A stretch of DNA of 64,000 bases from a virus (IMGVR_UViG_3300025924_000001:32001-96000); one strand, 5' to 3'. Positions 11,487-51,054 are shown, counted from the stretch's first letter. Made by a program: numbers and translations. The notes: generated by a model from the letters alone, not told the origin.

Positions 11487-12154
11487 AGGGCGTTCCTCAT
11501 CGTCGCGAGGTCGTCGTTGAGCTGGGTCACGCAGTACGTCTGATAGGCCGCCTGGTCGCGGTTGAACATGGTTCCCGTGTTCACGGCCTGGTAGCGCTCG
11601 TCGTTCTCGGCCTTGCCCACGATGGGGTGCAGGTGCTCGATGACGACGTCGTTGAGGTACGCGAGCCGACCGAGGCCGTAGCCCCAGTCCTTCCACACGT
11701 TGTCGACGTAGAGGTGCCTCAGCGTGGGCGGGGCCATGTAGCCGAGGGCCTGAACCAGCCGGGCGTCGAGCGCGACCGCGGTGGGCAGGTTGATCCCGTG
11801 CACGAGGTCGTTACCGTAGGCGACGCCACCGCCCATGAGAGCGATCGCGTCGACGAGCCGGGCGTCCCAGCCCTCGGTGCGCGGCACGTGGTCGTCGCCG
11901 AGGAACGCGAGGCAGGTGCTGTCCGCGGCGTGTCGCGCGACGAGCTGGTTGAGCGCGCCCACCATGCCGGGTCCCGCGGGCTCAACGACGGTGACCGGCG
12001 CGGCCTTGCGGTAGGCGTCGAGGTCCTCGTCATCGGCGTCGACGCCGAGCACGAGCTGCGTGTCGGCGCGGTTGAGCGCGGTCATCGCCTCCGCGAGGCG
12101 GATCGCGTTCGCGACGCGGCCTCGGGTGGGCACGAGAACGGTGAGATCGGTCAT
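11483..12154 (-). CDS. Glycosyltransferase, GT-A/GT2-like
   Basis: LTVLVPTRGR, FLGDDH, HLYVD, IEHLHP. Confidence 0.8.
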   Translation of the reverse strand: MTDLTVLVPTRGRVANAIRLAEAMTALNRADTQLVLGVDADDEDLDAYRKAAPVTVVEPAGPGMVGALNQLVARHAADSTCLAFLGDDHVPRTEGWDARLVDAIALMGGGVAYGNDLVHGINLPTAVALDARLVQALGYMAPPTLRHLYVDNVWKDWGYGLGRLAYLNDVVIEHLHPIVGKAENDERYQAVNTGTMFNRDQAAYQTYCVTQLNDDLATMRNAL

Positions 12155-13068
12155 ACCAGTGACCTTAACGCACGGCTGATGCCGTCCTCGAGGGTGACCT
12201 TGGGAGCGTAGAACTTGAGCATCTCGGTGGGGTCGCCGACGCGGCTGGTGACCCCCACGGGCGCCTCGGTGAGGTGCTTGAGCTGGGGGCTGTAGCCGGC
12301 CGCCGTGGTGACGAGGCGCGCGAGCTCGTTGAACGACGTCGCGCGGCCGGTGCACAGGTTGACGGTGTCGGTGAAGCCCTGATCGACCGCGGCGAGGACC
12401 GCGCCGACAACGTCGTCGACGTGGATGAAGTCGCGAAGCTGCTCCCCGTTGCCCCAGACCTCGAACGGGTCATCTCGACGCAGGGCCCGGTGAATGAACG
12501 ACGGGAAGGGGTAGTCGAGGTCCTGATCGGTGCCGTAGCCGCTGAACGGTCGAAACACGTGGACCCGCAGGCCAGCGGCTCGTGCGTGCTCAGCGAGCAC
12601 CTCGCCGGTCAGCTTGGCCCAACCGTAGGTGAGGTCGGGCCTGCCGAACGCGTCATCCTCATGGTTGATCCACTTCTCGATCAACGGCATGCCGCGCATG
12701 AGGTCGTTCTCCCACGCCCGCGGCGAGAGGCCCTGCAGGTTCGTGGGGTAGGCAGCGGAGCTCGAGAAGTAGACGACCGCGCCGGGTTGGGTTCGCAGCG
12801 CCCACTGGAAGAGCTCGGCGTCGATCGCGAGGTCGACGGCGACCCTCAGCGGCGCGCCCTCGATCGTCGTGCGGCCACCGACCACGGCGGCGCAGTGGAT
12901 GACGAGGTCGTAGTGCCGCGAGTTGAAGCGGAAGAAGTCGCGGGCGTCGACGCGGTAGGCGTCCCGGACGTCGAAGCCGGTGACCGAGTAGCCGAGGGCG
13001 GTCAGTCGGTTCAGCATGTGACGGCCGATGAAGCCCTGATGACCGGTGACCAGCGCCCGCTTGCTCAC
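12151..13068 (-). CDS. NAD-dependent nucleotide-sugar epimerase/dehydratase
   Basis: LVTGHQGFIG Rossmann motif, FSSSAAY, YGWAK (YxxxK), RDFIHVDD. Confidence 0.9.
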   Translation of the reverse strand: MSKRALVTGHQGFIGRHMLNRLTALGYSVTGFDVRDAYRVDARDFFRFNSRHYDLVIHCAAVVGGRTTIEGAPLRVAVDLAIDAELFQWALRTQPGAVVYFSSSAAYPTNLQGLSPRAWENDLMRGMPLIEKWINHEDDAFGRPDLTYGWAKLTGEVLAEHARAAGLRVHVFRPFSGYGTDQDLDYPFPSFIHRALRRDDPFEVWGNGEQLRDFIHVDDVVGAVLAAVDQGFTDTVNLCTGRATSFNELARLVTTAAGYSPQLKHLTEAPVGVTSRVGDPTEMLKFYAPKVTLEDGISRALRSLV

Positions 13069-14048
13069 GTCAGCAGCACCCTCTCCCACCGCCACAGGTT
13101 GTCCTCGATCAGGCTATTCGCAGCGACGTAGCTGCGGGCGTGCGCGCTCATCTTCTCGCGGAGCCGCGCGTCACCGAGCAGCTCGCGCAGGTAGATCGCC
13201 CACTCGTGCGGTCGGTCCACCAGGAAGCCGGTCTCGCCGTGACGAACGTAATCCGCGTAGGGGCCGCAGTTCGACGCGATGATGGGGATGCCGAGCGCGC
13301 CGTACTCCATCGCCTTCAGCGCCGACTTTGACTTGTTGAACAACGACGGCCGTAGGGGAGCGAGGCCGAGGTCGAAGTCGATCGACCGCAGGTAGTCGTC
13401 GATCTCGCCGTGCCACTCCGAGTGGCGCCACAGGTTCTTGGGCCACTTCTCGACGAGGTTGTGACCCATGATGTGCAGCTCCGCCTGGGGCACGCGAGTG
13501 AGAAACCGCCGCAGCTCGCTGCTGAGCTCGGTCCAGTCACCGACGTGCGTGGCGCTGCCCGCGTAGCCGACCGTCACGCGGTCGCTGACGTGCTCCCGCT
13601 CGTGGTCGATGAGCCAGCTCGAGACGTGGTTCGGGATCACCTCGATGGGCGCGGTGGTGTACTCGCTGAGCCGGTTCGCGAGGTGATCCGTCGTCGTCGT
13701 CACGACGTCGGCGACCGCGAGGTTCCGCTTGGCTCGTTCCTGCATCTCAGGCTTGAAGAAATTGTGCGCGATCGCGTTCGAGCCCTCGATGTTCCATAGG
13801 TCGTCATCGAACTCGAGAACGACCTTGACACTGCCCTTGCGGGCCGTCCTCTGGATCCACTCCGTGGGTCCCTCGAGGACCACGCGCTGCGCGATCACGA
13901 CGTCGACGTTGCCGAGCGCGACGTCCGCGGGCATGCTGCCATCGTAGAAGACGTCGTAGCCACGGGCCTTGAGCGCGTTGAACGGCTGCTTGACCCGATA
14001 GTAGCCGCAGCCGCTGTGGTCGCAGAGCCAGCCGAAGACGCGGGTCAC
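13065..14048 (-). CDS. Glycosyltransferase, GT-B/GT4-like
   Basis: GCGYYR, EFDDDLW, VGYAGS.TH, FNKSKSALKAMEYGALGIPIIAS, ETGFLV. Confidence 0.85.
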   Translation of the reverse strand: MTRVFGWLCDHSGCGYYRVKQPFNALKARGYDVFYDGSMPADVALGNVDVVIAQRVVLEGPTEWIQRTARKGSVKVVLEFDDDLWNIEGSNAIAHNFFKPEMQERAKRNLAVADVVTTTTDHLANRLSEYTTAPIEVIPNHVSSWLIDHEREHVSDRVTVGYAGSATHVGDWTELSSELRRFLTRVPQAELHIMGHNLVEKWPKNLWRHSEWHGEIDDYLRSIDFDLGLAPLRPSLFNKSKSALKAMEYGALGIPIIASNCGPYADYVRHGETGFLVDRPHEWAIYLRELLGDARLREKMSAHARSYVAANSLIEDNLWRWERVLLT

Positions 14049-41508: not shown

Positions 41509-41926
41509 GGGAGGTTGACGTGCCTGATCAGCTGCGATTCGTGTCGGTGCAGCCGAACACGTGGACGGTGGTGACGGAGGTGGGCGTCGAGGTGATGCAC
41601 GACAGCTCCCAGATCGAGAACGCCCACGTGCTCTACGACTCCCTTCACCTTCCCACGACGCTGACCCGAGAGGGGTACCGAACGCCCTCCTGGTACGTCC
41701 GGGCGGTGGGGTCGTGAGCCCCTGGAAGTGGTGCCTGCGGCGAATGAAGCGGATCGCGGCAGCTCTTCGTGACGAGCGAGCGCACAACCGGCACCTCGCG
41801 CGAACCAACGAGAAGCTGACCAGTCAGAACGATACCCTCCGGTTGAAGCTGATCGACCTGGGGATCAACCCCAACGAGGTTGACGACCCCGACGACCGAG
41901 AGAGACCGATCTAGACACCTACCACG

Positions 41927-41959
41927 ACGAGGGGCGGGCCCGAGCGGCCCGCCCCTCGT
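41927..41959 (+). terminator. Hairpin terminator
   Basis: ACGAGGGGCGGGCC / GGCCCGCCCCTCGT. Confidence 0.65.
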
Positions 41960-42027
41960 TGTATCTCTGCAAGTTAATGTGATATTGTAAACTCCTATCG
42001 GAACGGAAGCGAGGAAGGAGAGAACCC

Positions 42028-43272
42028 GTGAACCTGTCCGACCTGGAGGCCATCCTGGGCGTCCTCAACCCGTGGCTGATCGGCCTCGCGTACGGCGCGC
42101 TGGGACTGCTCGCGCTGTGGTTCATCCGCTCCACGGTGAGGTCGCTCGCGGCGTGGACGCACCGTGCGCGCTCGGTCGAGACCACGGTCGCCGGCACCCG
42201 GGTGTTCTACGTCGCGGCCCTCGCCGGCATGCTCGTGTCCCTGAACACGAGCTGGAACTACTTCGGCTCGGTGCTCGGCGTGATTGACGTCGTGGAGCGC
42301 GGCGTCATGTTCTTCGTGCTCGAGCTCGCGCAGGTTGCCTGCGGCTGGGGGATGCGTTCCTCCATCCGCGAGCACGGCAAGCCCGGCCCGGCTCGACTGA
42401 TCGCGTGGTTCCTCTGCGCGATCTCCGCGTACATGGCGTGGAGCCTGAGCGGCGTCTGGGTCGGCGTCGCGCGAGTGGTGCTCGGACCCGTCCTGAGCCT
42501 CGTGATGCTTCACCTCGCCCTGGGCATCGAGATCCGCAGCCTGCGGGTCAAGACCGACTCAGTCTGGGTCCGCGTCGCTCGAGAGCTGCGGGAGCGCCTG
42601 CTCGCGTTCCTGGGGTTGAGCGACGAGGAGCGTGACGCGAGGACGATCGCTCGTCAGCGAGCCCTCCTGAAGGCGACCCGCATCCGCATGACCGGTGACG
42701 GCTCGGAGCGGTCGCAGCGACGCTTCATCGAGCAGCTCGCGCGCGCGGACGTCGCGAACGACGCCGAGGCGCTCGAGAGCTTCGTCAACTCGATGAAGCT
42801 CGCGGCGAACGCGAGTGCGGTGTTTGACCTGCGGTACCCGATGCCATTTCAGGTGACACCTGATGGTGCCAACGAGGTGGACGTGGCACCTGACACTGAC
42901 ACTGACACTGACACCGAGGAAGTGACACCCACCGAGGTTGACACCGAGGAAGTGGCACCTGACACCTGGCTATCGGGTGACACTGACACTGACACTGACA
43001 CTGACACTGACACTGACACTGACACTGACACTGACACTGACACTGACACTGACACTGACACTGACACTGACACTGGCAAAGTGCCGACGGCACCGGTGTC
43101 ACTGGCACCTCGAAGTGGCAGGGCTCAGGCTGAGGTCGACACCATCCTCGAGCTGATTCGAGACCAGGGCGTGGACGCGATCTCCATCGAGGTCGTCAAG
43201 ACGAAGCTTGGTCTCAAGCACTCAACCGCGGCGCGTCGCCTTCGCGCCGCGAGGGATCAGCTGGCATCCTGA
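42028..43272 (+). CDS. Multi-TM protein with (DT)n linker and C-terminal HTH (DUF2637/Spd-like)
   Basis: About five hydrophobic segments, acidic repeat, ISIEVVKTKLGLKHSTAARRLRAAR. Confidence 0.65.
   Translation: MNLSDLEAILGVLNPWLIGLAYGALGLLALWFIRSTVRSLAAWTHRARSVETTVAGTRVFYVAALAGMLVSLNTSWNYFGSVLGVIDVVERGVMFFVLELAQVACGWGMRSSIREHGKPGPARLIAWFLCAISAYMAWSLSGVWVGVARVVLGPVLSLVMLHLALGIEIRSLRVKTDSVWVRVARELRERLLAFLGLSDEERDARTIARQRALLKATRIRMTGDGSERSQRRFIEQLARADVANDAEALESFVNSMKLAANASAVFDLRYPMPFQVTPDGANEVDVAPDTDTDTDTEEVTPTEVDTEEVAPDTWLSGDTDTDTDTDTDTDTDTDTDTDTDTDTDTDTDTGKVPTAPVSLAPRSGRAQAEVDTILELIRDQGVDAISIEVVKTKLGLKHSTAARRLRAARDQLAS
42979..43074. repeat. (GACACT)16 perfect hexamer tandem repeat
   Basis: Counted directly. 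Confidence 0.95.
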
Positions 43273-43277
43273 CACCG

Positions 43278-43312
43278 GGTGCCACCTGCCACGATCAGTG
43301 GCAGGTGGCACC
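43278..43312. terminator. Hairpin built from TGCCA/TGGCA motifs
   Basis: GGTGCCACCTGCCAC / GTGGCAGGTGGCACC. Confidence 0.6.
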
Positions 43313-43383
43313 TCAGCGCGTGGCACCGACGACGTGACTTCCACCTTCATCAGTTGATGTGATATGGTGGTACCACCGAGGAG

Positions 43384-44952
43384 GTGATGACGGTGAGCGA
43401 GGAGCTCGAGAACGACGAGACGAGGGTGTTCGCGACCGCGGCCCCGGTTGAGGCGTCTGACCTGGTCGAGGACTCGACCGCCTCAATCAAGGAGCCTGCG
43501 ACCGCGTCCCAAGAGACCGGGATCGACAGGCCACCGGGTCCCGCGACGACCGTCAAGGCTCGGTCGAGCGCCGGTCGCCCCACGTGGCACCTGTCCCTGA
43601 CGCTGGGCCTGGTGATCGCCCTGGTCGGCGGCATCCTGCTGTGGATGCAGTCACCGGAGCTGGCCCTGCTGGTCGCCGGCGGCCTGATCATCCTGGTTGG
43701 TCTCGCGCTCGCCCTGTGGTACCTCTTCGGTTCCGGTACGCTGAGCCGTCGGGGTGCCACGGCTCGGCGAGATGCCAACCGCGGTGGCACGCCGGGTGCC
43801 AACCGCGGTGGCAGTGCCAGTGACACCGGTCGAGGTAGTGCCAACCGCCGTGGCAGTGCCAACCGTGAGGATGGCACCAGCCGACGGCGACGCGGTGACA
43901 CCGGTGATCGCGGTGACACCCGATCGCGGCGACCGGGACGCGGTGACACCGACCGTGGTGCCACGGGTGCCAACCGGCGTGCCAATCGAGATGGCACTAC
44001 CAACCGGGGTGCCAACGGCAATCGGAACGGTGCCAACTCAGGTGCCAACGGTAATCGGAACGGCGGTGGCAAACCGGCGGCACCGGGTGCCACGAGGCCG
44101 AGCCAGCCGGCCGGTGGCAAGCCGCCGACAGACCGGAAGCCGAACGCGAACGGCGGTCGGCAACCCCTCGTCGGCGACCAGGCGGCGAGTCGGCCCGACC
44201 GTCTCACGGCGGCTGACCGGCGAGCTCAGCGGCGGCGAGCCGCCGGGTACCCGCAGTCCAGGGTCATCACGTGCGGCGGTCGGCCTCCGCTGGCCGCCGT
44301 GAAGACGACCAAGAAGACGGATGAGACGGCCGACGCTGATAAGAAGCGGGTAAGGTTGAAGCCTCTGCGGTGGCGCAGTCGGTCCGGTAAGCTGCCGGTC
44401 CCGAAGCCGCCGCGAGCGACGACGACGAGCGCCCCACCCAAGGCGGCACCGGTGAGACCGACGACGACGACGAAGCCCCAGGTCAAGCCCGACGAGAGGG
44501 TTGAGTGGCCGAACGTGGACCACGACCAGGTGGCGAGCCAGCCGCCGCCGCGGATCACCGTCCCCCGTCGAGCGGTGAGGCTTGAGCCGCGGTACCACGG
44601 TCGCGCGGGTGAGCCGAACTGGCCGACGACCGACCCCGACCGACCGACACCGACACCGAGCATTCCCGACCAACGGAACAGGAGAGGTACCGTGAGCAAC
44701 CCCGATCTGCTGACCCGGGCCGCCCGGGAGCAGCACTTCAGCGACTCCGCGACCGCCGCGGTGAGCGCCGCACAGGCGAAGGACACCCAGGCGAACCAGC
44801 TACTGGCCCTGGCCGGCGAGCTGGATGGCGTGGAGGGCATGGAGCGGGTTCAGGAGGAGCACTACCGGGCCGCGGCCGCGGCCGCGCACGACGCGGAGGT
44901 TCGCCGGGGGAAGGCCGCGATCTACGGCTTCCTGAGCGAAAACCCCGCCTGA
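43384..44952 (+). CDS. Two-TM protein with long low-complexity region (plasmid transfer/spread-like)
   Basis: Two TM segments, ANR/GDT repeats, helical C-terminus. Confidence 0.6.
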   Translation: MMTVSEELENDETRVFATAAPVEASDLVEDSTASIKEPATASQETGIDRPPGPATTVKARSSAGRPTWHLSLTLGLVIALVGGILLWMQSPELALLVAGGLIILVGLALALWYLFGSGTLSRRGATARRDANRGGTPGANRGGSASDTGRGSANRRGSANREDGTSRRRRGDTGDRGDTRSRRPGRGDTDRGATGANRRANRDGTTNRGANGNRNGANSGANGNRNGGGKPAAPGATRPSQPAGGKPPTDRKPNANGGRQPLVGDQAASRPDRLTAADRRAQRRRAAGYPQSRVITCGGRPPLAAVKTTKKTDETADADKKRVRLKPLRWRSRSGKLPVPKPPRATTTSAPPKAAPVRPTTTTKPQVKPDERVEWPNVDHDQVASQPPPRITVPRRAVRLEPRYHGRAGEPNWPTTDPDRPTPTPSIPDQRNRRGTVSNPDLLTRAAREQHFSDSATAAVSAAQAKDTQANQLLALAGELDGVEGMERVQEEHYRAAAAAAHDAEVRRGKAAIYGFLSENPA

Positions 44953-44962
44953 TTTCACCCTC

Positions 44963-44997
44963 GCTCGACCCCCGACCAGGTAGGTCGGGGGTCGAGC
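44963..44997. terminator. Hairpin
   Basis: GCTCGACCCCCGACC / GGTCGGGGGTCGAGC. Confidence 0.6.
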
Positions 44998-45027
44998 CCG
45001 TTCCGGAACGAGGAAGAGGAACCGATC

Positions 45028-47214
45028 GTGGTCCCCCACAAGGTGTTCTTGCCGGTCGCGGGCTCCCTGCTGACGCTCGCCCTGAGCCTCGGCCTGCTCG
45101 TGACGCGGGTCTCGACGCCGCTCGCGGTCACGGGCACCGTGGTCGCGACCGGGCTCGCCGTGCTGCTGGGCGAGCGTCTGGTTCACGTCGCGGACTCGCT
45201 GTCGCACCTCACCCTGGACGCGAAGAGCCTCGCGTTTCGCCTGGTAGCGGTCGCGGTGGTGGGCGATGGGACCGTCGCGGTAACCCTCGAGATCGTGGGC
45301 TTGACCGAGCTGCCCCGCGCCCTGCTGTGGCAGCTCGGCCTCACCGCGGCGCAGGTTGTCGTCGCGGTGATCGCGGACGAGTACCTGTCGCGGGTACGGC
45401 CGCGGCTACGGCAGGTGTCGTGGGAGCGCCGACAGGTTCGAGAGCGCGACCAGGCGGTCGCGCGACGGGACGCGGAGATCGAGGTGGGCGCCGGCGAGGC
45501 CCTGGTCAAGCGCGAGTCGGTGACCCCGGCTCCCACCGAGAGCCACGACATCCGGGTCATGCGCCTGGCGCTCAAGAAGGTGAAGCTCGGCTGGCTGGTG
45601 ATCCTGGACCGGCGGCCCCTGAGCGACGCTCGGGGCCTCTTCGGCATCCAGTTCGACGTCCAGATCACGGCCGAGGCGATGAGCCACAAGGGGCGGCGAA
45701 CGCTGCCGACGGAGGCGGCGGAGCCGATCGCCGTGGCCCTCTCGGAGCTGCTCAACCAGGTGATCGAGAGGAGGTGGGTGGGGATCCAGCGACTTCCCCG
45801 GGCCGGTGGGTACGCGATCACCGTGACCACGCAGGACGTGATGGCCCGGGTCTACCCCTTCGAGGACGAGCTGGAATGGGCGAGCGTTCAGGACCTGGTC
45901 CTGATCGGGTACGGCCTGGACGCTCAGCCGGTTTACCTGCTGCTGCGGCAGCACGGCCAGTTCCTGGGGAAGAGCCGGTCGGGCAAGTCCTCGCTGATCA
46001 ACTGCGTGCTCGCGTACCTGACCCGTTGCCGCGACGCCGTGGTCTGGATCTGCGGCACCGAGAAGCTCTACGACATGCTGGCCGGCTGGCTGGAGATCTA
46101 CCTCGACGAGGACGAGGAGATGCCCTTCGACTGGGTCATGGCCGGCCCGCAGGACACCGCGGAGTGCCTCGCGGCCCTGATGCGCGTGGCTCGGTACCGA
46201 CAGTCGCTGCGGCTCAGCCAGCGGCTGAACCTGCCGGACATCATCTGCGTTCTCGACGAGGCCTCGTTCGCGCTGCGCAACACGACGATCACGGCCGAGT
46301 TCGACGGCCGTGACCTGACGATGTCGACGCTCTGCGGCATGATCACGCAGGGCGCGGGCTCGGCGGGCTGCTGGCTCGAGTACTCCACGCAGCGGGACAC
46401 GAACGACCAGCTCGGTCCCGCCGGCGGCGACATCCAGGCGCAGACGGGGTTTACCGCGGCGTTCGGCAGCCAGGACAACCTGTCCCTGGGGCGGCAGCTC
46501 GGGGACTTCAAGCTGCCGCCGCCGGCGCACAAGGGTGAGTTCTACCTGAAGAACGACGCCGCGGAGGCTCCCTACCCGGTGCTGACGAAGGGCCGCTACC
46601 TGCAGGAGGATGACCCGAGCAAGCCTCGGCTGCACGACGGGTTGACGGTGAGCTCGGTGTCGTGGTCGCGTCGATCGTTCAAGGTCCACCTCGACGAGGG
46701 GTCGGCGCGCGCCGCGGGGGAGCTCTACGTGGCGCGGCCGACGCGGGTCACGGAGCGGTTCCTGGACTACCTCGCGAGCCCCACGTCCGTGGCTGCGCCG
46801 CTGGACATCGTGGGTGCCCGTCGGGCCGTGGCCCCCGCGCCGGCGCTCGACGCGGTGGACGCGGACGCCGCTGACCTCGCGCAACGAATGGGGTTCGACT
46901 TCGCGTCCCTTCCCGGCGCGCAGAAGGAGGCCTACCGGGAGGTGGTACGAGAGCTGCAGACGGCCACGGAGCCGCGAGCGGACCCCGCTCAGGCAGCTTC
47001 CAGTGGGCCGCCGCGGTCCGGTCGGGCGGAGCAGGTGGAGTGGGTGCTGCGCGAGGCGGGGACGCCGCTCACGTCGCGGGAGATCCTCGACGAGCTCCGG
47101 TCCGTCGGCGTCGAGGTCAAGAGCGAGGGGTCGGTGCACAACCTGCTTGGTAGGCTCGTGAGTGACGGGGTCATCGTGAAGGTGAACGGTCGCTTCCAGC
47201 TCCCGGACTGGTAA
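45028..47214 (+). CDS. FtsK/SpoIIIE-family (TraB-like) DNA translocase
   Basis: N-terminal TMs, Walker A GKSRSGKS, Walker B ICVLDE, STQR motif, C-terminal winged HTH. Confidence 0.78.
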   Translation: MVPHKVFLPVAGSLLTLALSLGLLVTRVSTPLAVTGTVVATGLAVLLGERLVHVADSLSHLTLDAKSLAFRLVAVAVVGDGTVAVTLEIVGLTELPRALLWQLGLTAAQVVVAVIADEYLSRVRPRLRQVSWERRQVRERDQAVARRDAEIEVGAGEALVKRESVTPAPTESHDIRVMRLALKKVKLGWLVILDRRPLSDARGLFGIQFDVQITAEAMSHKGRRTLPTEAAEPIAVALSELLNQVIERRWVGIQRLPRAGGYAITVTTQDVMARVYPFEDELEWASVQDLVLIGYGLDAQPVYLLLRQHGQFLGKSRSGKSSLINCVLAYLTRCRDAVVWICGTEKLYDMLAGWLEIYLDEDEEMPFDWVMAGPQDTAECLAALMRVARYRQSLRLSQRLNLPDIICVLDEASFALRNTTITAEFDGRDLTMSTLCGMITQGAGSAGCWLEYSTQRDTNDQLGPAGGDIQAQTGFTAAFGSQDNLSLGRQLGDFKLPPPAHKGEFYLKNDAAEAPYPVLTKGRYLQEDDPSKPRLHDGLTVSSVSWSRRSFKVHLDEGSARAAGELYVARPTRVTERFLDYLASPTSVAAPLDIVGARRAVAPAPALDAVDADAADLAQRMGFDFASLPGAQKEAYREVVRELQTATEPRADPAQAASSGPPRSGRAEQVEWVLREAGTPLTSREILDELRSVGVEVKSEGSVHNLLGRLVSDGVIVKVNGRFQLPDW

Positions 47215-47367
47215 CCGTCAGTTACGGCTTCATGTTTCATATGAAGCCGAGGGGTACCCCCGAGACGGCCTTCTCGCCAGGTCGGAGGCTTCACTTCGGC
47301 TTCACCTTCACATGTGAATTCACATGTGAAGTCACGCAGCGTGACAACGAGACGAGAGGAGAGGCCC

Positions 47368-48138
47368 GTGTGCCTCGGACGAACCCACGCGGTGGGTGGG
47401 GTGACGCTGGGCCTCACGGCGGCCGACCTGGTTGGGAACGTGAGCCTGGTCCAGGCGCTCGCCGGCGCGGCCGTGGCCGCCGGTGCGGCCCTGCTCAACG
47501 ACCTCGACACGCCGTCGAGCACCGTGAGCCACGCGCTGGGGCGGTCCACCCAGCGCCTAGCGAGCGGTGTTCAGCGGCTGTCTCGCGTCGTTTTCGAGCT
47601 GACCGCGACGCCGGCGGACCACCGGTACGCGTCACCCACGCATCGGGCCCTGACGCACACCCTCCTCTTCGCCGTCGCACTGGGGGTTGGGACCTGGGCG
47701 ACGGCGCGGTGGGTCCCCCTCGGGGCCGGCCTGGTCGCCCTCGTGGTCGCCGTGCCGGCGCTGCGCCTGGTGGACCGTCGGCTGCGCGGGGTGAGCCTGC
47801 TCCTGACGGCGCTGGGGGTCGCGGCGCTCGTGACCGCGGCCGCGCCGAGCGCGGTCACGGTGGGGGTCGCGGTGGGGGCTGGGGCGCTCAGCCACGACCT
47901 GCTCGACGGGTGCACCACGATGGGCGTCCCCCTGCTGTGGCCGCTCAAGCTGCGGGGCATGCGGTGGCGGCGGCTGGGGCTGCCGCGGTTCCTGCGGTTC
48001 CACACCGGAGGCCCGGTCGAGCCGTGGGTGCTGTGGCTGCTCGTCGTCATCACCGTGGGGCTCACGCCCCCAGTCCTCAGCTGGCTCGAGGTTGCCGTCA
48101 CACAGCTCATCAATTTAGCTGTTTACATTTGGGGCTGA
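47368..48138 (+). CDS. YdjM-like membrane metal-dependent hydrolase
   Basis: GRTH, LNDLD, HRALTH, SHDLLD..T..GVPLLWP. Confidence 0.85.
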   Translation: MCLGRTHAVGGVTLGLTAADLVGNVSLVQALAGAAVAAGAALLNDLDTPSSTVSHALGRSTQRLASGVQRLSRVVFELTATPADHRYASPTHRALTHTLLFAVALGVGTWATARWVPLGAGLVALVVAVPALRLVDRRLRGVSLLLTALGVAALVTAAAPSAVTVGVAVGAGALSHDLLDGCTTMGVPLLWPLKLRGMRWRRLGLPRFLRFHTGGPVEPWVLWLLVVITVGLTPPVLSWLEVAVTQLINLAVYIWG

Positions 48139-48945: not shown

Positions 48946-48974
48946 TTTACAGCAAGATGTTGATGAGATACGGT
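48946..48974 (+). promoter_or_regulatory. Promoter TTTACA-N17-TACGGT
   Basis: Recurrent motif. Confidence 0.7.
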
Positions 48975-49902: not shown

Positions 49903-51054
49903 CTAGTCGCGGTGCCAGCCGCCGAGCCGGGGGTAGATGACGGCTGGGTTCACGCGATCGAGGTGACGCCTCGCGGTCGCGAGGATCCCGTCGATGACCT
50001 CGTTCGTGAGGTAGTGAGGCTCGAGGCCGAGGGCCTCGAGCCCGGTGTGCGTGACGCGATAGTGGTGGCCCATCTCCTCGACGCGGTCACTGACGAAGTG
50101 AGCGACGGTCGCACCGGGCACGCGGCTCGCGACGGCCTCCGCGACGTCGAGGATCGAGATGGACTGGGTGAGCTGGTTGAAGACCCGGAACTCCCCCGGC
50201 TCCGCGGGGTTGAGGCACGCCAGCTCGAGGCACCGCACCGCGTCGCGCAGGTTGATGAAGCCGCGGGTCTGCGAGCCGTCACCGTAGACGGACAGCTCCA
50301 CCCCGAGCGCGGCCTGGACCGCGAAGCGGTTGAGCGCGGTGCCGAAGATCGCGTCGTAGTCGAACCGGGTCGCGAGGTCGGGGTGACGCTGGGTCTGGTC
50401 GGTGTCGACGCCGTAGACGACGCCCTGGTTCAGGTCGGTGACGCGGAGGTTCCAGGCACGGCACGCGAACTCGAGGTTGTGCGAGTCGTGCACCTTGCTG
50501 AGGTGGTACCACGAGCCGGGGCGCTTCGGGTACAGCACGCGGTCGGTGCGACCCTTGTGCGTGACGTCGAGCCAGCCCTCCTCGATGTCGAGGTTGGGGG
50601 TGCCGTACTCGCCGAGGCTTCCGAGCTTGATGACGTGAATGCTGGGGTTGACCGCGTGAACGGCGTGGATCAGGTTGAGGGTGCCGATCACGTTGACGTA
50701 CTGCGTGTAGGTGGCCTGCCGCGAGCCGAGCATGGAGTACGGCGCGGAGCGCTGCTCGGCGAGGTGGATCACGGCGTCTGGCCCGAACTGGACGAGGGCG
50801 CGCTCGAGGTCGCCGGCCCGCGTGGTGTCGCCGCGGTAGAGGTGCAGCCACTCGTCGTGCGCGTCGTGCCAGGCGTCGATGCGGTTCATGAGGGTCTCAA
50901 TGGGCACGAGGCTACTCGTGCCCAGCTCGCGGTCGAGGTCGCGGCGCGCGAGGCTGTCGAAGATTCCCACCTCGAAGCCGGCCGCGGCGAGGTGCAGGAC
51001 GGTGGGCCAACCGAGAAAGCCGTCGCCACCGAGAACGAGGACGCGCACGGACAC
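49903..51054 (-). CDS. sqdB: UDP-sulfoquinovose synthase
   Basis: GGDGFLGWPT, HLAEQRSAPYSM, KLGSLGEYGTPN.DIEEG, YHLSKVHDS, TDLNQGVVYG, RFDYDAIFGTALNRF are SqdB/SQD1/Agl3 signatures. Confidence 0.88.
   Translation of the reverse strand: MSVRVLVLGGDGFLGWPTVLHLAAAGFEVGIFDSLARRDLDRELGTSSLVPIETLMNRIDAWHDAHDEWLHLYRGDTTRAGDLERALVQFGPDAVIHLAEQRSAPYSMLGSRQATYTQYVNVIGTLNLIHAVHAVNPSIHVIKLGSLGEYGTPNLDIEEGWLDVTHKGRTDRVLYPKRPGSWYHLSKVHDSHNLEFACRAWNLRVTDLNQGVVYGVDTDQTQRHPDLATRFDYDAIFGTALNRFAVQAALGVELSVYGDGSQTRGFINLRDAVRCLELACLNPAEPGEFRVFNQLTQSISILDVAEAVASRVPGATVAHFVSDRVEEMGHHYRVTHTGLEALGLEPHYLTNEVIDGILATARRHLDRVNPAVIYPRLGGWHRD

Follow-up and report, generated by a model that had tools for sequence, protein, structure and literature searches.

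A candidate TraB/clt-type DNA translocation module in a 112-kb tailed phage genome

What is a set of genes resembling the conjugation module of actinomycete plasmids doing in a genome that codes for virions? This question is raised by a locus in the IMG/VR virus record IMGVR_UViG_3300025924_000001, which is 111,864 bp long and rated 100% complete. We have analysed bases 32001-96000 of this record, a stretch of 64,000 nucleotides (nt) which we call the window; positions are those of the window, unless the genome is mentioned. Three consecutive open reading frames on its plus strand, P0001, P0002 and P0003, code for two membrane proteins and an FtsK-like ATPase, the pump, and they are followed by a repeat element (47225-47335). 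An initial annotation had proposed that they form a plasmid-type conjugation module, carried by a conjugative phage-plasmid. We favour a somewhat different answer: the locus may be a site-specific membrane DNA translocation module of the TraB/clt type, with envelope accessories, allowing phage DNA to spread independently of virions. Judging from sequences, structural models and the likeness to known systems, we would give this answer about an even chance of being right.

Three proteins and their counterparts in pZL12

The translation of P0003 contains a Walker A motif (GKSRSGKS), a Walker B motif (VLDEAS) and the FtsK-like motif TQRD. The best PDB matches of its AlphaFold model, as found by Foldseek, are the FtsK motor domains 2iut, 2ius and 6t8b (E about 1e-14), and the next ones are the conjugation coupling protein TcpA, EccC/EssC and HerA. 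The C-terminus is modelled as a helix-helix-helix-strand-strand winged helix, and the model as a whole has a predicted local distance difference test score (pLDDT) of 88. Profiles detect this domain weakly: RPA32 C-terminal domain (0.005), PadR in family members (1.9e-4) and, in a profile search of PDB sequences, a weak winged-helix match only. The protein has four transmembrane (TM) helices. A TM region, an FtsK-motor fold and a winged helix are the architecture which the initial annotation had assigned to this ATPase.

P0001 also agrees with its earlier description, a TM protein with a helix-turn-helix (HTH), as judged from the translation and the AlphaFold model (overall pLDDT 71). Its N-terminus has five long helices in the model, four of which are detected by a hydropathy scan. 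They are followed by a confident helical cytoplasmic part and by a disordered acidic Thr/Asp tract with a net charge of -29. The protein ends in a three-helix bundle (pLDDT 96-97), which we read as the HTH. P0002 had been described as a low-complexity protein with a TM helix. It is indeed a membrane protein with a low-complexity tail, but it has two adjacent TM helices instead of one, at about residues 67-108 (segments at 67 and 89). The tail, residues 116-440, is rich in Gly, Arg, Asn and Pro, with a net charge of +42.

Third-position GC (guanine plus cytosine) content is high in the three genes (0.80, 0.80 and 0.92), as in coding DNA. No Pfam or NCBIfam model matches P0001, P0002 or P0003 significantly, and PADLOC gives no match for these proteins and their neighbours. 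The sole family match in the module is PHROG 31069, 'FtsK/SpoIIIE-like' (1e-10). Matches to NCBIfam MSCRAMM adhesin models were dismissed, they are low-complexity matches to the Thr/Asp tract of P0001.

A weak plasmid match led to Streptomyces anulatus 'plasmids' of 90-94 kb with a terminase, and from there to the phage/plasmid pZL12. The S. anulatus elements have a DUF2637 protein, a large protein and an FtsK-like protein, in this order. The same three-gene order is found in pZL12/phage ZL12 (GQ919031), again inside a virion-encoding genome: pZL12.73c, 72c and 71c, with 398, 766 and 725 amino acids, against 414, 522 and 728 in P0001, P0002 and P0003. The first and third genes are homologous. 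The P0001 family is related to pZL12.73c (hhalign probability 97.4%, E 9.5e-12, 186 columns; hmmsearch 79 bits), and the P0003 family to pZL12.71c (hhalign 95.8%, E 7.8e-9, with 405 columns that span the ATPase and the winged helix; hmmsearch 34 bits). In fact, pZL12.71c is the only match of the family within pZL12, and both pumps have an N-terminal hydrophobic region, an ATPase and a C-terminal winged helix. Nevertheless, identity is only about 25%, and the middle genes are unrelated (P0002 against pZL12.72c: BLASTP E 3.0; eight-protein profile: probability 58%, 23 columns). They share only their position and the design of a membrane anchor with a long tail.

P0001 itself is not a DUF2637 (PF10935) protein: neither P0001 nor 36 homologues match this model at E<=0.01, whereas the S. 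anulatus protein in the equivalent position matches it at 7e-34. Only the C-terminal HTH tails are alike (34% identity over 56 residues), and hhalign finds no significant similarity.

In a database clustered at 90%, P0003 has 45 close relatives, which all lack Pfam domains and whose contigs reach 128 kb. A search by profile yields 832 representative clusters if the limit is E<=1e-3 and 124 if it is E<=1e-30, about a hundred being full length. Among 44 homologues there is no variation in the Gly and Lys of Walker A, the Glu of Walker B or the Gln of the TQR motif. The family contigs inspected are phage-like, with portal, WhiB, DpdA or DUF5131 nearby. The nearest cultured relatives are an Actinoalloteichus 59-kb element and Saccharomonospora phage PIS136, whose hosts are mycelial Pseudonocardiaceae.

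The layout of the module recurs across the family, down to 31-35% identity. It consists of a polytopic membrane protein, sometimes a tiny two-TM protein, a membrane-hairpin protein of 490-700 amino acids with a long tail, and the pump; a small two-TM protein or a YdjM hydrolase is found 3' of the pump. Proteins of the P0002 design occupy the same position in seven other relatives. The P0001 family proper is limited to the closest relatives (at least 56% identity), and its best cellular homologues come from Pseudonocardiaceae. One homologue, in a Lentzea chromosome, is without mobile-element neighbours; another, in a Pseudonocardia plasmid, adjoins genes of conjugation type (AAA_10 and NlpC/P60), and the region around a Mycolicibacterium copy resembles a plasmid. 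The P0001 family is tied to mobile elements, it is not a strict partner of TraB. A divergent GntR/UTRA regulator is found upstream of the module in two more distant relatives (L025 and L005) and in pZL12, as in traR-traB.

In order to place the pump, we have used a tree of the ATPase core (25 sequences, LG+C20). In this tree the Actinoalloteichus prophage is the first to group with the family (98/96), and PIS136 is the second (91/79). The S. anulatus phage-plasmid, pZL12.71c, the Tra protein of plasmid pSQ10, Hiyaa gp102 and Jay2Jay gp111 are neighbours in the same clade. Scores with the hidden Markov model (HMM) of the family, in tree order, are 172, 89, 68, 35, 34, 30, 13, 10, 4 and 3 bits: 172 corresponds to the Actinoalloteichus prophage, 89 to PIS136, 34-35 to pZL12.71c and pSQ10 Tra, 10 to Lentzea FtsK and 3 to EccC. 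The ATPase thus tends to group with pumps of mobile elements from actinomycetes rather than with chromosomal FtsK or EccC, at moderate support.

A repeat element directly after the pump gene

The element begins 11 nt after the stop codon of P0003, and is formed by two blocks with a short GC palindrome between them (Table 1). For block 2, there are 2 matches against 0.01 expected. TTCAC/GTGAA appears in six copies within 40 bp, while 0.25 would be expected in 120 bp, and nowhere else in the 112-kb genome is it clustered so densely.

Such elements are found in many members of the family. We have surveyed 23 non-redundant loci with downstream DNA. Two inverted blocks of short repeats, starting no more than about 35 nt from the stop codon and 39-71 nt apart, are present in 14 of these loci, or 15 if the variant form of the window is included, with inverted arms of 10-29 nt. 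Inverted-repeat scores are 10-29, against at most 10 in shuffled sequences. Each arm is built of one short unit: CTCAC, ACAAAC, CACCT, CACAC, CAACC or TGTCATA. The Nocardiopsis plasmid pSQ10, which is of conjugative type, has four CGTTAC and five GTAACG units after its FtsK/SpoIIIE gene; we have found no literature on this plasmid.

The repeat unit appears to track the recognition helix of the winged helix in P0003-family proteins. This helix starts with A[V/C][Y/F]N in all five CTCAC loci, including L028, whose protein is otherwise the closest to that of the window; the window protein has His at that residue, and its unit is TTCAC. When the window is compared with L024 (62% protein identity), both blocks have switched unit together, keeping their palindromes. 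A change of unit with palindromes kept is the pattern that would be expected of a protein recognition site.

Comparable sites are known in plasmids. TraB of Streptomyces plasmids binds clt, a site made of short direct repeats (PMC4447253). The clt of pWTY27, which has been defined experimentally, comprises 16 bp at the end of traA and the 159 bp that follow, and consists of direct repeats of 7 bp together with inverted repeats (PMC3583192). A dif/Xer-type role of the palindrome was rejected, as the genome has no tyrosine recombinase. The clusters of 8-mers in the P0002 coding region (43752-44042), with seven copies of GTGCCAAC and four of GTGACACC, and the TGACAC repeat in P0001, are most simply coding repeats. 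GTGACACC includes TGACACC, the 7-bp direct repeat of the pWTY27 clt; probably GTGCCAAC and GTGACACC code for Gly-Ala-Asn-Arg tracts and the match is coincidental.

The domain architectures, the fold of the pump, homology and gene order shared with pZL12.73c and 71c, the conserved repeat element and its lineage-changing unit are what the TraB/clt reading is built on. From them, binding of DNA to the element, translocation, its direction and any cell-to-cell spread may be predicted as follows. P0003 would be a membrane-anchored FtsK-fold motor, presumably hexameric, whose winged helix would dock on the repeat element. Starting there, it would pump double-stranded phage DNA through a membrane or septal barrier. 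P0001, P0002 and the YdjM-type hydrolase would be envelope-side accessories, as Spd proteins are for plasmids. The likely outcome would be that replicating phage DNA enters neighbouring hyphal compartments or cells without virions.

Other features of the locus are listed in Table 1. P0001 and P0002 are each preceded by a hairpin and a motif of the form AGTT(A/G)ATGTGATAT(T/G)GT, and P0003 by a hairpin alone. The promoter-like motif AGTTRATGTGATATKGT and relatives ending in GATACGGT are also found at 48964 and 51123, besides the two copies in the Table, usually just 3' of a hairpin. The non-structural genes appear to be organised as hairpin-promoter cassettes. A scan with sigma-70 and terminator consensus sequences was uninformative. 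The (TGACAC)x16 microsatellite codes for the Thr-Asp repeat of P0001. It is absent in all eight relatives checked, so it looks like a recent slippage expansion, and its length is likely to be variable.

The gene after the element codes for a YdjM-family hydrolase. Its start is probably the GTG at 47368 and not 47314, to judge from the alignment with L024. A YdjM gene is also found directly after the pump in L024, and near the pump in L036, L030 and the Actinoalloteichus prophage; it keeps accompanying the pump gene without an evident reason.

Table 1. Features of the pump locus. Positions are those of the window; a dot indicates no strand.
Feature	Position	Strand	Remarks
GC-rich hairpin	41924..41962	+	17-nt arms, 5-nt loop, inverted repeat 94% complementary; ends preceding gene
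Promoter-like motif AGTTAATGTGATATTGT	41972..41988	+	about 40 nt 5' of P0001 start; putative function
P0001	42028..43272	+	414 amino acids; polytopic membrane protein, C-terminal HTH; pZL12.73c homologue
(TGACAC)x16 microsatellite	42978..43075	+	Tandem Repeats Finder: 16.3 copies, 100% matches
Hairpin between P0001 and P0002	43278..43312	+	15-nt arms
Promoter-like motif, second copy AGTTGATGTGATATGGT	43352..43368	+	before P0002; near-identical to AGTTAATGTGATATTGT
P0002	43384..44952	+	522 amino acids; two-helix membrane hairpin, basic disordered tail, short helical C-terminal domain
Hairpin between P0002 and P0003	44964..44996	+	14-nt arms; no promoter motif after
P0003	45028..47214	+	728 amino acids; four TM helices, FtsK-like ATPase, C-terminal winged helix
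Block 1 palindrome CGGCTTCATGTTTCATATGAAGCCG	47225..47249	.	both arms altered together in L024
Central short GC palindrome GGGGTACCCC	47251..47260	.	between blocks; conserved in L024
Block 2	47288..47335	.	three CTTCAC direct repeats into perfect 26-bp palindrome, two TTCACATGTGAA units
YdjM-family membrane metal-dependent hydrolase	47368..48138	+	PF04307 2.9e-18, PHROG 20744 2.6e-32

Lifestyle of the genome and rival explanations

The genome has a GC content of about 68%, and the termini of the record overlap exactly over 127 bp. Its minus-strand arm codes for a tape measure, a portal fusion, a large terminase and tail fibre-like proteins; it is a virion-encoding genome, as had been supposed. 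Outside the window we find a family A DNA polymerase (PolA), a D5-type primase-helicase, an SNF2 helicase, a PD-(D/E)XK nuclease, a thymidylate-synthase-like enzyme, a C5 methyltransferase-like enzyme and an ADP-ribosyltransferase. For replication, the genome has genes of phage type. A domain search of the complete 111,864-bp genome detects no tyrosine recombinase (Phage_integrase), no serine recombinase (Resolvase), and no ParA (AAA_31) or ParB_N, CbiA-type ParA and Rep families not being covered by this search. Since no recombinase, ParA or ParB_N is detected and the replication genes are phage-type, the gene content speaks for a lytic phage. Our preferred explanation includes no stable plasmid state, as no maintenance or integration genes have been detected. 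Spread of replicating DNA between compartments would need no plasmid state, and may still be a role of the module.

The host is likely to be a mycelial actinomycete of Pseudonocardiaceae type, because of the hosts of the nearest P0003 relatives and of the best cellular P0001 homologues. Beside the D5 primase-helicase gene, at positions 105562-105655 and 103343-103385 of the genome, there are four GTGCACCC and four GTGGCACC repeats, which are possible origin iterons. Two genes for NAD-dependent sugar epimerases/dehydratases are found in the window, both on the minus strand (49903-51054 and 12151-13113). A blastn search of the 5.3-kb module stretch against 50,697 phage records gives no match.

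The same module evidence would also suit the conjugative phage-plasmid of the initial annotation, a plasmid prophage moving between strains both by TraB-type conjugation and in virions, as is the case with pZL12 and pFP4. Through its 127-bp terminal overlap the contig can be closed, and relatives of the pump are found on circular plasmid records from cultured strains: pZL12 and a 94-kb S. anulatus plasmid with a terminase. Nevertheless, such an overlap is what an assembler produces for any circularly permuted or terminally redundant phage. The complete genome contains none of the AAA_31 ParA, ParB_N, tyrosine or serine recombinase genes of such an element and no GntR-type TraR, while PolA, the D5-type primase-helicase, SNF2, the nuclease and the thymidylate-synthase-like gene, with the other nucleotide-modification genes, give it the profile of a lytic phage. 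The phage-plasmid proposal is not supported for this genome, and we consider it unlikely. The pump might instead act on the host, interfering with or replacing FtsK/SffA-type segregation and septation, or loading phage genomes into spores for dormancy. Commentaries list ftsK, parB, ssgA and whiB among actinophage genes that possibly manipulate development (PMC10117723, PMC13587820), an FtsK-like gene occurs by itself in lytic Streptomyces phages such as Jay2Jay, and a site-specific winged helix with a cis site would also suit directional loading of forespores. However, the family is nearer to translocases of mobile elements than to chromosomal FtsK, its conserved partners and adjacent cis element fit the tra/clt layout of plasmids, and CTTCAC lacks the orientation skew that FtsK orienting polar sequences (KOPS) would show (41 forward and 46 reverse copies genome-wide). 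A role in host manipulation is thus improbable.

Two other explanations leave DNA transfer between cells aside. If the repeats were only a terminator or operator for the neighbouring genes, the three proteins could be unrelated membrane morons with no joint function. In fact, the repeat region lies between the pump and YdjM genes and folds into four hairpins as RNA (z = -6.3), and hairpins also separate P0001, P0002 and P0003. On the other hand, relatives with 35% to 87% protein identity, and pZL12 as well, have their genes in the same order. Each arm is an array of a single short unit, common to both blocks in each genome and different between genomes; a terminator does not require a shared, lineage-varying unit in both blocks, which argues against a mere terminator. 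We find this explanation distinctly improbable. The last one, a role in the envelope during infection, is very unlikely. It might be a second step of entry of a long genome, as in T5, or the exclusion of superinfecting DNA, and a membrane-anchored motor with a predicted single specific site on phage DNA would suit it, as would the place of these genes behind phage-type promoter motifs in the non-structural arm. Against it, homology is found neither to T5 A1/A2 nor to known proteins of exclusion or defence, PADLOC included. Temperate prophages that integrate carry the module too, and so do plasmid-phages, for which transfer is the published phenotype.

The TraB/clt reading has difficulties of its own. 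The element is absent in eight of the 23 loci, and its apparent covariation with the recognition helix comes from only about three independent lineages. The folding of the repeat region counts here too: being upstream of the YdjM gene, this region could be a terminator or an operator. No GntR domain, as in TraR-type regulators (TraR/KorA, the kil-kor partner), is found genome-wide at E<=0.1. No homology of P0002 to pZL12.72c or to any Spd protein, including pIJ101 SpdB, is detected; the middle-protein profile gives a probability of 12.7% with the latter, so that P0002 may be called Spd-like by its position only. P0003 does not match Pfam FtsK_SpoIIIE (PF01580), and among 23 homologues there is a single match, at E 0.22, while pIJ101 Tra matches at 9.3e-10. 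Such a match is not strictly required of the class, as pZL12.71c also fails. In the tree, the split which separates Lentzea FtsK and EccC has a support of only 82/76, and pIJ101 Tra is a long branch on the FtsK side, with 4 bits in the family HMM. This protein resembles chromosomal FtsK about as much as it does the Tra proteins of other plasmids, so 'TraB' denotes a class defined by architecture and function and not a tight family of sequences. The mycelial host is deduced from relatives. Finally, that pZL12.71c-73c are the tra genes of Zhong et al. 2010 (J Bacteriol 192:3747) is taken from a secondary citation, and from the lack of any FtsK-like gene besides 71c.

The TraB/clt reading may be extended to a bolder proposal, which we regard as possible but doubtful: a large virulent phage, in which no integrase, partition system or kil-kor regulator is seen, would push its replicating genomes through hyphal cross-walls into adjacent compartments by means of a TraB-like pump and its own clt-like site. 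Infection would pass through the mycelium without lysis or virions, and the unit and the recognition helix would match each other, so that related phages could not mobilise one another. If true, such spread would be the bacterial equivalent of the systems by which plant viruses move from cell to cell. Provided that the module does what its architecture suggests, tailed phages of filamentous actinomycetes would have a second, particle-free route of spread. This would change our view of plaques, host range, containment by hyphal development and gene flow in antibiotic producers. In any case, a large family without Pfam coverage (the 832 representative clusters mentioned above) is now recognisable as TraB-like, and a 110-bp candidate loading site is defined. 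Cultivable relatives exist: pZL12, the S. anulatus plasmids and the Actinoalloteichus prophage.

Comparison with known systems

The concept is already known. Conjugating plasmid-phages, pZL12 and pFP4, have been published, and FtsK-like genes are routinely annotated in actinophages, so with this experimental precedent the idea is not new. What we add is the quantified homology to pZL12.73c and 71c, the size of an unannotated family, its lineage-variable repeat element and the negative result for maintenance genes.

Chromosomal FtsK/SpoIIIE proteins differ from the P0003 family: Lentzea FtsK scores 10 bits and is separate in the tree, and the motif of the window is clustered at one site instead of being skewed. 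Actinophage genes annotated as 'FtsK-like DNA translocase' (PIS136 gp41, Streptomyces phages Hiyaa gp102 and Jay2Jay gp111, Thermobifida phage P1312) are FtsK-fold ATPases in tailed phages, as P0003 is. PIS136 is the nearest cultured phage relative (89 bits). Unlike P0003, the annotated actinophage proteins reach or approach Pfam FtsK_SpoIIIE, or are annotated by it, and the Jay2Jay gene stands alone, without partner membrane genes.

The closest homologue from a cultured strain (172 bits) is found in pGBA129-24a of Actinoalloteichus sp. GBA129-24 (NZ_CP016078; L058/L009). As in the window, there is a YdjM-like hydrolase nearby, and CGGTAG-type repeats follow the pump gene. Unlike the genome of the window, it is a temperate 59-kb siphophage, with a gene of the recombinase family (503 amino acids, the size of a large serine recombinase) and no P0001-family gene. 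Although filed as a non-mobilizable plasmid, pGBA129-24a is a complete phage: besides the recombinase-family gene it has those for terminase, portal, capsid, tape measure, lysin and holin. An identical pump protein is also recorded on the 7.2-Mb chromosome, so the element integrates, which suggests that pGBA129-24a is the excised circular form of an integrated prophage.

A similar case is that of S. anulatus NBC_01417 plasmid unnamed2 (CP109520, L010) and five to six other Streptomyces 'plasmids' of 86-99 kb, which have a terminase by the DUF2637/large-protein/FtsK-like module. They appear to be phage-plasmids like pZL12. MOB-suite, in which TraB-type transfer is not modelled, classes these plasmids as non-mobilizable.

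The plasmid-phage pZL12 is the system that comes nearest in gene order, and its conjugal transfer is reported as published in PMC3583192 and PMC4170104. Citing Chen et al. 2012, the latter describes plasmid-phages as episomes which propagate and conjugate, and which also form infective particles. Both pZL12 and pSLE1 carry ParA/ParB (PMC4487206). pZL12 has parAB, a reported rep locus and the GntR regulator pZL12.80 upstream of its module (PMC4487206), whereas the genome of the window has neither parAB (AAA_31, ParB_N) nor GntR. After pZL12.71c no repeat array is seen, only a hairpin.

The last comparison is with conjugative plasmids and their TraB-type proteins. The initial annotation had likened the three genes to a TraB translocase with Spd membrane proteins. 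The architecture of a TraB with membrane partners is present, and two of its three genes are homologous and syntenic with those of pZL12, but the middle gene lacks Spd homology. An HMM of the P0001 family finds nothing in the six frames of pIJ101, and the partners are not recognisable Spd homologues. Spd proteins are too diverse for assignment by homology even among plasmids (PMC4447253), so the missing sequence match says little about function. The similarity of pIJ101 Tra to the P0003 family is marginal (hhalign 86.8%, ATPase core only). Unlike TraB plasmids, the locus has no TraR, and its carrier is a 112-kb tailed phage instead of a plasmid or an actinomycete integrative and conjugative element. 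Nevertheless, pSVH1 TraB, pIJ101 Tra (KilA) and pWTY27 TraA have a TM region, an FtsK-like ATPase and a winged helix, as P0003 does. As in pWTY27, a candidate cis site of direct and inverted repeats lies directly downstream of the pump gene, and genes for membrane proteins are adjacent (PMC4447253, PMC3583192).

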